Of a stretch of DNA of 3,621 nucleotides, positions 1 to 3,621 are shown one piece after another (position 1 is the first letter of the stretch; every line of letters begins with the position of its first letter). The DNA comes from a virus (taxonomy: Duplodnaviria; Heunggongvirae; Uroviricota; Caudoviricetes). The DNA lies in the IMG/VR virus record IMGVR_UViG_2675903595_000013; one strand, given 5' to 3'. A program made the position numbers and the translations under genes. The notes under the pieces are model-generated. The model did not search any database, was not told where the DNA came from, and was given only the letters and a program-made list of their open reading frames with translations.

Positions 1-32
1 CCAATGACTAGTCTAAAAACTAGTATTAAGAC

Positions 33-52
33 TATCACTTATTTAAGTGATA
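33..52. repeat. Perfect 20-bp palindrome TATCACTTA-tt-TAAGTGATA (9-bp arms, 2-bp spacer) in an AT-rich intergenic region; candidate operator, function unknown
   Basis: Read directly: 33-41 tatcactta is the reverse complement of 44-52 taagtgata. Nearby dyads include gactagtc (6-13), actagt (20-25) and gggata-N10-tatccc (~133-154). Confidence 0.5.
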
Positions 53-213
53 CTGGTTGTCTGGAGATTCAGGGGGCCAGTCTAACGATACAGCGCATGA
101 TGTGTCAGGCTTGAATACCTTTATCCTTTAAAAGGGATATCAGTTAAGTTATCCCGTGTAGGGTATAAGCCATTATCAAAGCCACTCTGTAGGGAATGGC
201 TTTTGTGATGGCA

Positions 214-285
214 TCACTTACTCTTTACGCTGCTATCCCACTCATCCCGGAATTTTGATGGGTTATTGAAACCTTCTGCTGACAT
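214..285 (-). CDS. Hypothetical small ORF (23 aa, MSAEGFNNPSKFRDEWDSSVKSK) with strong Shine-Dalgarno
   Basis: ATG at 285-283 (minus) is preceded by AAGGAG (plus 291-296 ctcctt) at ~7 nt spacing; stop TGA at 216-214. The frame stays open upstream to an ATG at 378-376 (54 aa), but that start has no good RBS. No family recognised, and it is too short for composition to be informative. Confidence 0.2.
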   Translation of the reverse strand: MSAEGFNNPSKFRDEWDSSVKSK

Positions 286-509
286 AACAACTCCTTCAAT
301 GTTTGGCTGAAATTGGGATGTCTTTCCATCAGTCCGCCACCACAAAGAATCTTTTTTGCCATAAGGCAGGAGGTTCATCTTTCAGTGGCTGCCGGTGTTA
401 TTTCCCCACTTACTGGCTTGGGTTGTTTCGTGGTACTGCCGTTAACTGGTGGCCCAGAATAAATTCCGGTTTCATTATCAAGCCCACCCGTAAATGGGCT
501 TTGTAATGG

Positions 510-767
510 CTACTTCGCTTTTGCTTCCGCTCGCTTACGCCGGCGCTCTTCTTTCCTCTCGGCTTTTGCCATGTCCATGAATGCCTGCATGATCGAGTTC
601 CGCATCATGTAGCTAACAAAGTGATGATTGACACAGCCGTTGAGGCGCAGCTGCTCGCCAAACTCATCCACCGAGGCCAATGCTTCCATCATGCCCTTCT
701 CGCCTTTCATGAACTCTGAGAAGTCGCGCCCCGCTCTGGAGGCGCATTCAATAACATGATCACTCAT
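510..767 (-). CDS. Hypothetical small protein (85 aa) with a highly basic Lys/Arg/Glu-rich C-terminal tail, translationally coupled to the upstream KilA-N gene
   Basis: ATG at 767-765 overlaps the stop of the KilA-N ORF (766-764) in an ATGA arrangement. The protein ends AKAERKEERRRKRAEAKAK. No family recognised from memory. Could be a separate gene or the C-terminal part of a longer ancestral KilA-N/antirepressor gene split by a frameshift. Confidence 0.5.
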   Translation of the reverse strand: MSDHVIECASRAGRDFSEFMKGEKGMMEALASVDEFGEQLRLNGCVNHHFVSYMMRNSIMQAFMDMAKAERKEERRRKRAEAKAK

Positions 768-1261
768 CCCGGAAGCCCGGGGATCGTAATCTGCAGCTGG
801 TTAGCCAGGGAGTTAATCTCAGCGACCAACACTGGCTTCGTATAGCGCCATGCTGCCAGCCCTTGTCCGCAGAAGCTCGCCATATCTTTCTTCTGGTCAA
901 ATTCATGACATTTCATGTTGAGCTGCGCACTTAAGCTGTTGCGATGCTGAAGTTCTCCGGTGAAGTAGTCATCGAGGACTTTATAGGCCGCGTACTTGAA
1001 CCCGGGGTTTAACCAAGCCGCATAATCGTAAGCAACAAACTTCCCGCCATATGTTCCACCGTGTACACCGCGCTCAGTAAAAACCACAGATTCGTGGTTT
1101 TTCTCCAGCTCGGCTAAGAACTCTTTGGTCTGCTTGTTTCGCAGGTAGTGGTAAGGCGATTCAGATTCACTTTTACCACTGGCTTTCCACATATCAGTGA
1201 GGCAGATCATGCCATCTTCACCGATACGAATTGGTTGATTGAAGAGGGTTAATGATTTCAT
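764..1261 (-). CDS. KilA-N domain DNA-binding protein (165 aa), phage-associated
   Basis: The translation carries the characteristic KilA-N (PF04383-like) signature: ...ICLTDMWKASGK..., YLRNKQTKEFLAELEK, GGTYGGKFVAYDYAAWLNPGFKYAAYKVL. ATG at 1261-1259. Lies immediately downstream of the lysis cassette on the same strand. Confidence 0.75.
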   Translation of the reverse strand: MKSLTLFNQPIRIGEDGMICLTDMWKASGKSESESPYHYLRNKQTKEFLAELEKNHESVVFTERGVHGGTYGGKFVAYDYAAWLNPGFKYAAYKVLDDYFTGELQHRNSLSAQLNMKCHEFDQKKDMASFCGQGLAAWRYTKPVLVAEINSLANQLQITIPGLPG

Positions 1262-1376
1262 AGCGTGTACCTACTCTTTGAAATGAACCTTTGCCGCACA
1301 GGAAACCAGCCCACCGAGGCTCGCCAGCACTAACTGGTATCCTCAAAGGCCCATTCCAAAGGGGCAGGTTCGGTGT

Positions 1377-1403
1377 AAAAAACATGCGTTGCGGTACGCA
1401 TTT
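1377..1403 (-). terminator. Candidate rho-independent terminator downstream of Rz/Rz1
   Basis: Plus 1384-1389 atgcgt pairs with 1396-1401 acgcat (6-bp stem, 6-nt loop). On the minus-strand RNA the hairpin is followed by G + UUUUUU (plus 1377-1382 aaaaaa). Sits ~60 nt after the Rz stop. The stem is only moderately GC-rich. Confidence 0.35.
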
Positions 1404-1462
1404 ATTGCAAAAAGCCCCGCATCGCGAGGCTCATTAAATGGACTTTGTGATTTGCAAAAAAA

Positions 1463-1921
1463 TTATTTCAGGCATTGCGTCCTGATGTATTCCTGCAGGT
1501 AGTTAACCTGCGCGGTTATCTTGTCGATTCCACTTCGGAGACGGTAATAATTGAGTTCAGCATCTGCTGTAAGTCCTGGGCTTTCTCCATCGCCCATGCC
1601 GCTGGCTCCGGTCGTTGACTTTGCACAGGTGGCGGCGACTTGCAGGCGCTTACGCCCAGCAGAAACATCAGCACGGAGACTTTCGATAGTCGCGTTAGCA
1701 TCAGCAAGCTCCTTTATGTATCTTGCGTCGAGTTCTGCTACATCACGTTGACGCTTCCGCATGTCAGCGATGGTGGCGTTCGCCTTCTCCAGTTCACTGG
1801 CCTTGTTATCGCGCTGCTCTTTGTAGGCGATTGCGTTATCACGGTAATGATTAACAGCCAATGACAGGCAGACGATGATGCAGATAACCAGAGCGGAGAT
1901 AATCGCGGTTACTCTGCTCAT
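1463..1921 (-). CDS. Rz: Rz i-spanin (inner-membrane spanin subunit), 152 aa from the ATG at 1921
   Basis: Translation [31 protein letters not shown]... closely resembles lambda Rz, with an N-terminal TMD and a coiled-coil periplasmic domain. The six-frame ORF starts at a GTG (1933), but the ATG at 1921-1919 has a GGGGGAA Shine-Dalgarno and overlaps the endolysin stop (ATGA at 1921-1918). Confidence 0.85.
1516..1701 (-). CDS. Rz1: Rz1 o-spanin (outer-membrane lipoprotein spanin subunit), embedded in the +1 frame of Rz
   Basis: Translation (M)[35 protein letters not shown]... has a signal peptide with a lipobox-like VSAC followed by a proline-rich segment, typical of Rz1. It lies wholly inside Rz. 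The ATG at 1701-1699 is preceded by AAGGAG at 7 nt; the six-frame ORF starts two codons earlier at a TTG (1707). Confidence 0.7.
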
Positions 1922-2415
1922 TGTTTCCCCCACAAACAGACTTCACGCTCAATCTCACGGCGAGTCATCAGTCCTTTCCATTGATTACCGCCAGCGTATG
2001 TCCAGCGCCGTAGCTGATCACATGCGCCTTTAATATCACCCTGGTTTATTTTGCGAAGAAGCGTCGATGTTCTGAAATTGCCAGCACCCACGTTGTAGAC
2101 GAACGAGTAAAGAGCGCAGCGCGTTGTTTCCGGTATATCGACTTTGATGTACGGGTTAATTTGTCTGGCGACAGTGGCAAGGTCTTTATTCAGGAGGGCT
2201 TTGCACTCTGCTTCGGTATACGTTTTACCGGGAATGATGTCTTTTCCTGTATGCCCGTAACATACAGTCCATACACCAACTATGTCTTTGTAAGGATTAT
2301 GTCTCACACCTTCCAGACCATCGTTACCACCTGGGCCAGTGATTAACACAGATGCTATAGCAATAGCCCCGCCACCAATAGCAGCAGCAACAGCTTTTCG
2401 TAATGATGGAGGCAT
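1918..2415 (-). CDS. R: SAR endolysin (signal-arrest-release lysozyme, phage 21 R21-like), 165 aa
   Basis: N-terminal Gly/Ala-rich weakly hydrophobic segment ([20 protein letters not shown]) typical of a SAR domain. T4-lysozyme-type catalytic spacing E35-x8-D44-x5-T50 ([18 protein letters not shown]). Start ATG overlaps the holin stop (TAATG at 2417-2413). Length matches the R21 family. Confidence 0.9.
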
Positions 2416-2630
2416 TATCCACCTCTCGCAGCCTTGCGCTTATCTTCTTTAATCTTGAAATAAAGGTTTGTCAGGTACGTCAGCAGGCCAAATACCAGGC
2501 TACCCAGCACTCCAATTGCCGCCCACTGTGAGGGCGTGACTTTATCTAGCAGCTGTAAAAACCAGTACCCGGCACTACCTGCTGAGGTGCCATAGGCGAC
2601 ACCCGTTGTTAACTTATCCATGGATTTCAT
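2415..2630 (-). CDS. S: Pinholin (phage 21 S21-like class II holin) with a dual-start motif, 71 aa
   Basis: Translation [71 protein letters not shown] has two TMDs, a charged C-terminus, and the Met1-Lys-Ser-Met4 dual start (antiholin/holin) characteristic of S21. A GAGGTGGGG Shine-Dalgarno lies upstream. Confidence 0.9.
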
Positions 2631-2741
2631 AACCCCACCTCGCAGACAAAGCGGGTGTAAATTGAGGGAATACTACGAAACGTAACAGACTCGGAGTCAG
2701 TGAATAACTCAGGTATTGGGTTATCAGCTAATATCGAGACT

Positions 2742-2772
2742 CAAAAAATGGAAAAACCCGCTCGACGGCGGG
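2742..2772 (-). terminator. Intrinsic terminator hairpin upstream of the holin gene, candidate tR'-like late-leader terminator (possibly bidirectional)
   Basis: Plus 2757-2761 cccgc pairs with 2768-2772 gcggg (5 GC pairs, 6-nt loop). On the minus strand the hairpin is followed by UUUUUCCAUUUUUU (plus 2742-2756). Plus 2752-2756 is an A-run and 2773-2775 is ttt. It sits ~110 nt upstream of the holin start, analogous to lambda tR' preceding S. Confidence 0.45.
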
Positions 2773-2820
2773 TTTAAGCTGTGTGACGAAGTAACCACTC
2801 TTAACAGCATAACCAATTTT

Positions 2821-3051
2821 GGTGATGCTGCCAACTTACTGATTTAGTGTATGATGGTGTTTTTGAGGTGCTCCAGTGGCTTCTGTTTCTATCAGCTGTC
2901 CCTCCTGTTCAGCTACTGACGGGGTGGTGCGTAACGGCAAAAGCACTGCCGGACATCAGCGCTATCTCTGCTCTCACTGCCGTAAAACATGGCAACTGCA
3001 GTTCACTTACACCGCTTCTCAACCCGGTACGCACCAGAAAATCATTGATAT
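2821..3051 (+). mobile_element. Truncated IS1 copy: left inverted repeat plus the first 231 bp only
   Basis: 2821-3051 is identical, base for base, to 3291-3521 of the downstream IS1. It begins with the IS1 left IR GGTGATGCTGCCAACTTACTGAT. Identity ends at 3052, where the IS21-family fragment begins. Confidence 0.85.
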
Positions 3052-3079
3052 TGTCAGCGCCAGTGATATAAGACGGTAA
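2876..3079 (+). pseudogene. insA: Truncated insA: first 58 codons (zinc-finger region) fused to 9 foreign codons, lacking the C-terminal HTH
   Basis: Translation is identical to InsA through ...THQKIID, then IVSASDIRR and a stop encoded by the adjoining IS21-like sequence. The CxxC...CxxC motif is retained; the HTH region ([22 protein letters not shown]) is absent. Confidence 0.7.
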
Positions 3080-3257
3080 TTCGCCATTTGGATTGTCCGC
3101 TCCACCCAACATGTTGTTTCCTTAAGGTTCTCACACCAGAAAGGACATCAACATGCTGAGCAGAGAGGACTTTTACATGATAAAGCAAATGCACCAGCAG
3201 GGCGCGTACATCGTCGATATTGCGACTCAGATTGGTTGCTCTGAACGGACGGTCAGA
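3052..3257 (+). mobile_element. IS21-family (IS21/IS100-like) left-end fragment: terminal sequence plus the 5' end of istA
   Basis: Begins TGTCAGCGCCAGTGATATAAGACGG..., which is IS21-family terminus-like. It contains an ORF start at 3153 whose translation MLSREDFYMIKQMHQQGAYIVDIATQIGCSERTVRR matches my recollection of the IstA N-terminus (HTH region) of IS21/IS100. The fragment is cut off after ~35 codons. Confidence 0.5.
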
Positions 3258-3317
3258 CGCTTCTCAACCCGGTACGCACCAGAAAATCAAGGTGATGCTG
3301 CCAACTTACTGATTTAG
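3153..3317 (+). pseudogene. istA: Truncated istA 5' fragment (N-terminal HTH, ~35 codons) reading through into IS1 sequence; chimeric 54-codon ORF
   Basis: ATG at 3153. After ...SERTVRR the frame continues into IS1-derived sequence ([18 protein letters not shown]) and stops at TAG 3315-3317 inside the IS1 left IR. Confidence 0.45.
3258..3289 (+). repeat. 32-bp direct duplicate of internal IS1 sequence (cgcttctcaacccggtacgcaccagaaaatca) between the IS21 fragment and the second IS1
   Basis: Identical to 3013-3044 in the first IS1 fragment and to 3483-3514 in the second copy. Followed by a single a (3290), then the IS1 left IR. Confidence 0.85.
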
Positions 3318-3345
3318 TGTATGATGGTGTTTTTGAGGTGCTCCA

Positions 3346-3621
3346 GTGGCTTCTGTTTCTATCAGCTGTCCCTCCTGTTCAGCTACTGACGGGGTGGTGC
3401 GTAACGGCAAAAGCACTGCCGGACATCAGCGCTATCTCTGCTCTCACTGCCGTAAAACATGGCAACTGCAGTTCACTTACACCGCTTCTCAACCCGGTAC
3501 GCACCAGAAAATCATTGATATGGCCATGAATGGCGTTGGATGCCGGGCAACTGCACGCATTATGGGCGTTGGCCTCAACACGATTTTACGTCACTTAAAA
3601 AACTCAGGCCGCAGTCGGTAA
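3346..3621 (+). CDS. insA: IS1 InsA (transposition inhibitor / N-terminal part of the InsAB' transposase), 91 aa
   Basis: Translation [91 protein letters not shown] matches IS1 InsA, with a zinc-finger and an HTH. GTG start at 3346; TAA stop at 3619-3621. Confidence 0.95.
3597..3603 (+). promoter_or_regulatory. IS1 A6C (AAAAAAC) programmed -1 ribosomal frameshift site for InsAB' transposase production
   Basis: The motif a-aaa-aac lies at insA codons 84-86 (L-K-N), the position where IS1 is known to frameshift into insB'. The insB' frame itself extends beyond the window. Confidence 0.7.

Follow-up and report, generated by a model that had tools for sequence, protein, structure and literature searches.

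The window analyzed here is a stretch of 3,621 nucleotides from a Caudoviricetes virus (IMG/VR record IMGVR_UViG_2675903595_000013). Upstream of its IS1 sequence lie minus-strand genes for a holin, a lysozyme and Rz together with a KilA-N gene, annotated in E. coli as essD, rrrD etc. Inside the Rz gene and out of frame with it, a 63-residue ORF (1516-1707, minus strand) with a lipoprotein-like LLGVSAC motif presumably encodes the Rz1 o-spanin, and a Pfam Rz1 match is found at the equivalent place in the related loci L009 and L012. A terminator-like hairpin with a T-run (2754-2775, minus strand) is located upstream of the holin gene, between this gene and the IS1 insertion point, and may represent a late-operon tR'-type terminator. 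The first 84 nucleotides of the window (minus strand) correspond to the left end of an IS2, which abuts the prophage DNA at 84/85 and shows 98.8% identity to L019 sequence beside a gene annotated as IS2 transposase. The IS2 insertion is also present in L006, L010, and L026, and the E. coli relatives L022 and L024 continue differently at this point.

The right-hand part of the window is assembled from pieces of IS1 and of an IS21-family element, which meet at three junctions, J1, J2, and J3. Its features are the following.

2813-2820, no strand: left copy of the 8-bp target duplication CCAATTTT of IS1_A, the resident IS1 in the prophage DNA, assigned by comparison with relatives.
2821-3051, plus strand: IS1 nt 1-231, with 100% identity to nt 1-231 of the L005 IS1.
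2821-2843, plus strand: left inverted repeat of this first IS1, within nt 1-231.
2828-2855, plus strand: promoter-like site in the first IS1, from a consensus scan.
2876-3079, plus strand: truncated insA' ORF of 67 residues crossing J1 into IS21, with Pfam Zn_ribbon_InsA and partial HTH_Tnp_IS1 matches.
3048-3057, plus strand: J1, where IS1 nt 228-231 (ATAT) abut the IS21 terminus TGTCAG; the same 25-mer exists in relatives.
3052-3257, plus strand: left 206 nt of an IS21-family element, comprising the terminal inverted repeat and istA codons 1-35 (ATG at 3153), with 100% identity to IS21 nt 1-206 of L005 and L038.
3153-3317, plus strand: chimeric ORF of 54 residues, from the ORF list, with a weak HTH_23 match.
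3258-3261, no strand: J2 microhomology CGCT, equal to IS21 nt 207-210 and to IS1 nt 193-196 when the parent sequences are compared directly.
3258-3289, plus strand: third copy of IS1 nt 193-224, out of order, with 100% identity (repeat family D2).
3290, no strand: an extra A explained by neither parent, IS1 nt 225 being T in the copies inspected.
3291-3621, plus strand: IS1 nt 1-331, from the exact terminus of the left inverted repeat to the window end, with 100% identity.
3346-3621, plus strand: complete insA of 91 residues with full-length Pfam domains.

The blocks were compared base by base with intact reference elements from the related chromosome L005 (CP022457.1), and all four are 100% identical to the IS1 or IS21 reference. 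Repeat analysis of the window yields a direct repeat of 236 nt (2821-3056 and 3291-3526, spacing 470) and a 32-mer, CGCTTCTCAACCCGGTACGCACCAGAAAATCA, with three exact copies at 3013, 3258, and 3483. Exact repeats of known mobile elements on this scale are far beyond chance. An earlier sequence-only reading of this DNA had described a chimeric junction running from IS1 nt 1-231 through about 206 bp of an IS21-family left end and a 32-bp internal IS1 duplicate to a full IS1, and this description proves correct to the base, with two amendments. First, the right-hand IS1 is visible only as far as nt 331, where the insA stop codon coincides with the window end, and cannot be called full. Second, the length of the duplicate is right, and the copies at 3013, 3258, and 3483 bear out that IS1 nt 193-224 are already present in the left IS1 fragment, but 4 of these 32 nucleotides (CGCT) belong equally to IS21 and only 28 (IS1 nt 197-224) are unambiguously IS1. 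The single extra base that it had placed before a fresh IS1 left end is the A at 3290, IS1 starting at its nt 1 at 3291; in 16 of the 16 IS1 copies inspected, nt 224 is followed by T (...AAAATCA-TTGATAT). Around J2, intact IS21 reads ...CAGACGCTACCTCAA and IS1 reads ...ACACCGCTTCTCAA. Direct comparison of the two parents recovers both similarities noted in the earlier reading, CGCT being common to both and CTCAA being present in both just after it, offset by 1 nt. A 48-mer, GGTCAGACGCTTCTCAACCCGGTACGCACCAGAAAATCAAGGTGATGC, spans J2 and J3 together.

The identity of both parents is well defined. The IS1 left inverted repeat is found in the window at 2821 and at 3291, and the full 768-bp IS1 of L005 and L038, which is identical to the window over the parts present, has the size (~768 bp) and the ~23-bp imperfect terminal inverted repeats (GGTGATGCTGCCAACTTACTGAT / GGTAATGACTCCAACTTATTGAT) of the IS1 family. 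Pfam analysis reports Zn_ribbon_InsA and HTH_Tnp_IS1, both full length, in the ORF at 3346-3621. In relatives the next genes encode DDE_Tnp_IS1, in keeping with the insA-then-insB' order of the family; the position of insB' falls beyond the window end. The 67-residue InsA' ORF at 2876-3079 retains Zn_ribbon_InsA but matches HTH_Tnp_IS1 at just 17 of 46 positions. The 8-9 bp target duplication of IS1-family elements is seen in the canonical copy, which CCAATTTT flanks in seven relatives. The intact IS21-family parent in L005 measures 2130 bp and encodes IstA (390 residues; rve, Mu-transpos_C_2) and IstB (266 residues; IstB_IS21); PGAP labels its relatives 'IS21-like element IS21 family'. Members of the IS21 family carry istA (DDE transposase) followed by istB (AAA+ helper), have terminal inverted repeats that start with 5'-TGT, and duplicate 4-8 bp of their target. 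The L005 parent ends on the right with TGTCAACGCCA and generates 4-bp duplications, ATAT, TATG, and CCGG, in three contexts. Of this two-gene element the window holds the left terminus, TGTCAGCGCCA, and istA codons 1-35 only, with neither a right end nor a duplication. The IS21 piece is a fragment of a family member and not a complete member.

The junctions do not follow the order of a nested insertion, as the earlier reading had recognized. IS21 is cut at nt 206 and possesses no right end or target duplication, and IS1 resumes at nt 193 instead of nt 228, repeating nt 193-224 out of order, before restarting at nt 1. The 54-residue ORF at 3153-3317 accordingly combines IstA residues 1-35, 11 residues that translate IS1 nt 193-224 in a frame foreign to it, and the peptide GDAANLLI encoded by the left repeat of IS1. 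Its sole Pfam match is the weak HTH_23 hit, and it is presumably non-functional. With the left insA truncated, istA reduced to 35 codons and IS21 devoid of its right end, the structure would be expected to yield no functional product. A hybrid sigma-70 promoter created by J1 (TTGATA-16-TATAAG) was considered and dropped, as the consensus scan makes no such call.

Related loci were collected through the truncated InsA' ORF, through holin and KilA-N look-ups, and through an IMG/VR scan for J1. Seven assemblies (L005, L006, L010, L014, L017, L026, and L038) carry exactly one 768-bp IS1 at this locus with an 8-bp duplication CCAATTTT on each side, reading ...AACCAATTTT, IS1 (768 bp), CCAATTTTTTACG; the flank on the nmpC side is CCAATTTTTTACGTACG..., and the insertion site is uninterrupted in E. 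coli relatives. Positions 1-3051 of the window are 100.000% identical to L038 and differ by one base in 3051 from each of L005 and L006. A second IS1 (IS1_B) is located 5476 bp downstream of IS1_A in these genomes, in the same orientation, and holds a complete IS21 after its nt 231, flanked by the 4-bp duplication ATAT; here the nested insertion is intact. Window positions 2821-3257 are base-identical to the left 437 nt of this IS1_B::IS21 composite, a donor that is presumably also present in the window's own genome. The J1 25-mer is likewise found in L005, L006, L007, L008, L010, L014, L017, L032, and L038. The A at window position 3193 (IstA His14) is common to L005 and L038, L006, L008, L032, and L033 having a G (Arg14), and this single-base marker assigns the window to the L005/L038 lineage. 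Because the relatives possess a single IS1 at the locus and an identical IS1_B::IS21 nearby, the window amounts to the canonical locus with 470 private bases added, and its J1 appears to be a copy and not a new IS21 insertion.

IS1_B itself (L005 9946-12847) is devoid of a target duplication of its own, with ..ACCACTTC on its left and CGCTTGCAG.. on its right. CGCTTGCAG also adjoins the left repeat of an inverted IS1 (IS1_C, L005 ~16417-17184) some 4.3 kb away, and this shared flank is the signature of an IS1-IS1 inversion across a lacY-like region.

The two private junctions differ in nature. J2 is internal to both elements (IS21 nt 206-210, IS1 nt 193-196), involves no transposon end, and uses a 4-nt microhomology, within the 2-12 nt range of microhomology junctions; the chance of at least 4 nt at a random join is ~0.016. 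The site is not one of exceptional similarity between IS21 and IS1, since for each of the 419 35-nt windows of IS21 some place in IS1 gives a score that is at least equal, and the longest exact matches between the two elements (9-11 nt) lie elsewhere and are unused at the breakpoints. One 9-mer, CACCAGAAA, is shared by IS21 nt 83-91 (3134-3142) and IS1 nt 212-220 (3032-3040, 3277-3285, and 3502-3510); it is longer than CGCT, yet no crossover is found there. J3, in turn, coincides exactly with the first base (nt 1) of the left repeat of IS1, and this position implies that the DNA end was defined by transposase. The target side of J3 is AGAAAATCATTGATAT (IS1 nt 216-231), the AT-richest internal 16-mer of IS1 (81% AT vs 47% overall). 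Two independent IS21 insertions have struck this patch 1 bp apart, one in S. sonnei (duplication ATAT, IS1 nt 228-231; L005 10173-10176) and one in the E. coli plasmid pVTB432v-2 (duplication TATG, IS1 nt 229-232; L004 5037-5040), whose IS1 is 93% identical (16 mismatches in 232). Integration may have a hot spot at IS1 nt 216-232 (window 3036-3051 and 3506-3522). The sequences flanking the L005 IS1 copies were inspected as possible templates for the extra A, and none ends in A. As the parents share 4 nt at J2 and 0-1 nt at J3, a mis-join in a de Bruijn or k-mer graph cannot produce these junctions, and we infer that each of the two must have been present in one or more of the molecules sequenced.

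Recurrence, which the sequence-only reading had proposed as a check for all three junctions, holds for J1 in relatives, and J2 and J3 were not found in the collections searched. Exact patterns of 34 nt for J2 and 29 nt for J3 returned no match in GTDB species representatives, IMG/VR, or JGI metagenomes, and neither junction was found in the related loci collected up to that search. BLAST of positions 3022-3320 found no complete E. coli genome or PLSDB plasmid spanning J1-J2-J3, and BLAST of the whole window against phage records revealed no second occurrence. The negative results for J2 and J3 apply to these collections, and not to Shigella chromosomes as a set or to S. sonnei at large. At the protein level, the 54- and 30-residue junction ORFs had no exact match in a collection of 15 billion proteins; the best matches to the 54-residue ORF reach its IstA part only, 69% of the query. 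BLAST with a 66-nt J3 probe did return matches in E. coli, the top ones of which (L019-L021) turned out to be ordinary IS1 copies with a flank ending in AAATCAA; this probe is uninformative in BLAST, as the tool merges its two IS1 halves into one place.

Other misplaced IS21 ends were encountered in the related loci. L007 4794-5561 (CWUL01000003.1) is an 'IS1' of 768 bp that has IS21 nt 1-60, exactly in register, in place of its own nt 232-291, with the join at a shared CAACA; its two flanks come from different loci, and it is most likely a draft-assembly artefact. L032 and L033 (2900-3144) are S. sonnei draft scaffolds in which IS21 nt 1-244 are followed by a single N and then by unrelated DNA. 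Joins of this type yield unique spurious 'IS21 ORF1' proteins in public sets (P0009, P0013, P0015, P0016, and P0021). S. sonnei 'IS21 ORF1' proteins that end after residue 48 had suggested a recurrent IS21 breakpoint, and they derive instead from such N-joined scaffolds. Lastly, L039 2900-3297 (UDSI01000153.1) contains a mini-IS21 of ~400 bp in which nt 1 to ~217 are joined to nt ~1945-2130, the deletion having occurred between the imperfect repeats CTCAAATACCCTGAA and CTCAACCACGCTGAA. It sits in an IS2 copy, is flanked by the duplication ACAG, and looks like a MITE-like derivative mobilized in trans; its deletion endpoint lies at most 10 nt from the J2 site in IS21.

The reading that we favor, with confidence no better than evenly balanced, is that the 470 extra bases are a real and private rearrangement scar in the IS1_A of a DLP12-type defective prophage, on a Shigella sonnei-type chromosome. 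Such a scar, if real, would be the trace of a very recent repair or transposition accident; otherwise, it is an assembly error. As the scar could have formed, a DNA end would arise at or beside IS1_A, either because transposase cut at the left repeat or because an IS1 end was transferred into the AT-rich patch (nt 216-231), and would prime repair synthesis with IS1 as the template. As the IS1 copies are all identical, this synthesis could slip onto the adjacent IS1::IS21 copy and pass the old junction J1. After copying 206 nt of IS21, the growing end would dissociate, pair again with IS1 nt 193-196 via CGCT, and copy 28 more nucleotides (nt 197-224). The copied tract would finally be joined to the IS1 terminus with one filler A. 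Overall, the process would amount to SDSA/MMBIR-like template switching completed by end joining or by strand transfer; the copying steps, along with their order and number, are what we infer from the blocks. The donor required for the inserted tract is found in relatives, where the 437 identical nucleotides of IS1_B::IS21 lie 5476 bp away, and the lineage base 3193 A, present in this composite as it is in the window, also counts in favor of a scar. That a scar should be seen just once would be explained by collapse of the 231-bp direct repeat, through homologous recombination, to a perfect IS1, and this repeat should collapse easily.

Within a real scar, there is a small chance that J2 and J3, 32 nt apart, record one coupled event, in which an IS1 end, either cut by transposase or strand-transferred into the AT-rich patch of a different IS1, would create a broken or stalled intermediate that is then rescued by microhomology-guided, break-induced template switching via IS1::IS21. 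If so, the window would preserve a naturally occurring case of MMBIR set off by transposition in a genome saturated with IS copies, and IS1 nt 216-232 would be a hot spot that IS21 and IS1 share for integration. The sub-models of repair differ in what they place to the right of the second IS1, namely CCAATTTTTTACG for a 470-bp insertion at the boundary between flank and left repeat vs GAAAATCA(A/T) followed by IS1 nt ~217-768 for an IS1-into-IS1 event; the part of the second IS1 that would tell them apart, its right end, lies past the end of the window.

The main competitor, possible though on balance doubtful, is that the 470 bp exist in the assembly alone, as a chimeric clone, a PCR gap-closure product, a minority read, or the outcome of polishing or gap filling that mixed IS1 and IS1::IS21 reads. 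Several observations count against a scar and for this artefact: the structure is private to the window in every search, J2, J3, and the chimeric ORF being found nowhere else in the collections searched; the provirus with 100% identical flanks (L038) carries a plain IS1; and artefactual joins of IS1 to IS21 are present in publicly available drafts of S. sonnei (L007; L032, L033). Against a scar, the extra A has no template and the similarity at the CGCT site is unremarkable. The locus, moreover, is situated among many IS copies, in the kind of region that is hardest to assemble. However, the 4 nt and 0-1 nt shared by the parents at J2 and J3 rule out k-mer graph mis-joins, the insertion is out of register, unlike that of L007, and contains no N, and the combination of an exact IS1-terminus join with a microhomology join bears cellular signatures rather than those of random ligation. 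Base quality is also high, as judged from the exact match of positions 1-3051 to L038 and the single base separating them from L005 and L006.

A real scar and an assembly or PCR chimera are thus the two leading explanations among the causes that the sequence-only reading had listed, where they figured as template-switch or illegitimate recombination and as a chimera in a repeat-rich region. The third cause on that list, sequential insertions with deletions, is the least supported of them and quite unlikely. Here, IS21 would have entered IS1_A at ATAT, a further IS1 would have inserted nearby, and deletions would have cut IS21 back to 206 nt. Insertions have indeed struck the AT-rich patch of IS1 repeatedly (nt 228-231 in S. 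sonnei, nt 229-232 in pVTB432v-2), IS1 has a preference for AT-rich targets, and J3 lies at an exact IS1 end. Yet, a host IS1 resuming at nt 228 provides no downstream nt 193-224, so that an extra partial IS1 is required, and at least 3 or 4 independent events are needed in a span of 500 bp. The window matches a copy 5.5 kb away base for base at J1 and over the 206 nt, which makes copying the simpler explanation, and no relative examined displays an intermediate state. Very unlikely, finally, is a larger rearrangement in which homologous recombination between IS1_A and IS1_B would delete the 5.5-kb nmpC-Q segment, so that window positions 1-3257 would represent prophage flank fused to IS1::IS21, and J2/J3 would stem from a further deletion to a distant IS1-in-IS1, since it involves more events than an insertion and no locus or collection searched has an IS1(..224)-A-IS1 structure, even though IS1-IS1 recombination is evident in this region (IS1_B lacks its own duplication, and CGCTTGCAG is found again next to the inverted IS1_C) and the sequence to the right of the second IS1 lies outside the window.

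Whatever its origin, the scar carries little weight for biology at large, being part of a decayed prophage in an IS-saturated genome. If real, it would be a clean natural case of identical IS copies misdirecting repair synthesis, with a switch in by homology, a return by microhomology, and a stop at a transposon end, and it could serve as a lineage- or isolate-specific marker, one that readily reverts through the 231-bp direct repeat. Should it prove an artefact, it marks a local misassembly to correct, and its spurious ORFs (the 67-residue InsA' and the 54-residue IstA'-IS1 chimera) could spread into annotation.

Compared with known systems, the left part of the structure resembles the nested insertions of IS1_B::IS21 and pVTB432v-2, in which IS1 nt 231 abuts TGTCAGCGCC and the IS21 sequence and orientation are the same. 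In contrast with IS1_B::IS21, the IS21 of the window ends at 206 nt, without right end, 4-bp duplication, or resumption of IS1 at nt 228, and is followed by IS1 nt 193-224, the extra A, and a fresh IS1 left end. IS1 is known for adjacent deletions, cointegrates, and sister-chromatid transposition, and it prefers AT-rich targets. The rearrangements that it promotes share with the window a novel joint located exactly at the left-repeat terminus and an AT-rich target; however, strand transfer predicts no extra A, and the target in the window is IS1 itself. Microhomology-mediated break-induced replication, or serial template switching (MMBIR, FoSTeS), is known mostly from eukaryotes and from E. 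coli under stress and, to our knowledge, not as a natural IS scar. It likewise involves serial switches, templated filler (28-32 nt in the window), a donor at a distance of a few kb, and net duplication of sequence. Unlike in that process, the first switch in the window would be hidden in perfect IS1 homology, and the final junction is a transposon terminus. Alternative end joining, a form of short-homology illegitimate recombination in E. coli, is treated in PMC11297215 with reference to Chayot et al. 2010. According to PMC11297215, it usually relies on microhomology of 2-12 bp and at times inserts bases without a template, and the 4-nt microhomology at J2 and the possible 1-nt filler at J3 would fit this description. 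Plain end joining, however, deletes sequence, whereas here 437 nt would first have been copied from an ectopic locus, for which DNA synthesis and template switching are required before any joining. The draft hybrids L007, L032, and L033 also display IS1 nt 1-231 with an IS21 left end followed by misplaced IS1, and a short motif at the join (CAACA in L007), but L007 is in register and length-neutral and L032 and L033 contain an N, whereas the window shows a net gain of 470 bp, out of register and free of N. The scar is either an instance of the known illegitimate or template-switch rearrangements, joined to a transposon end, or an artefact.
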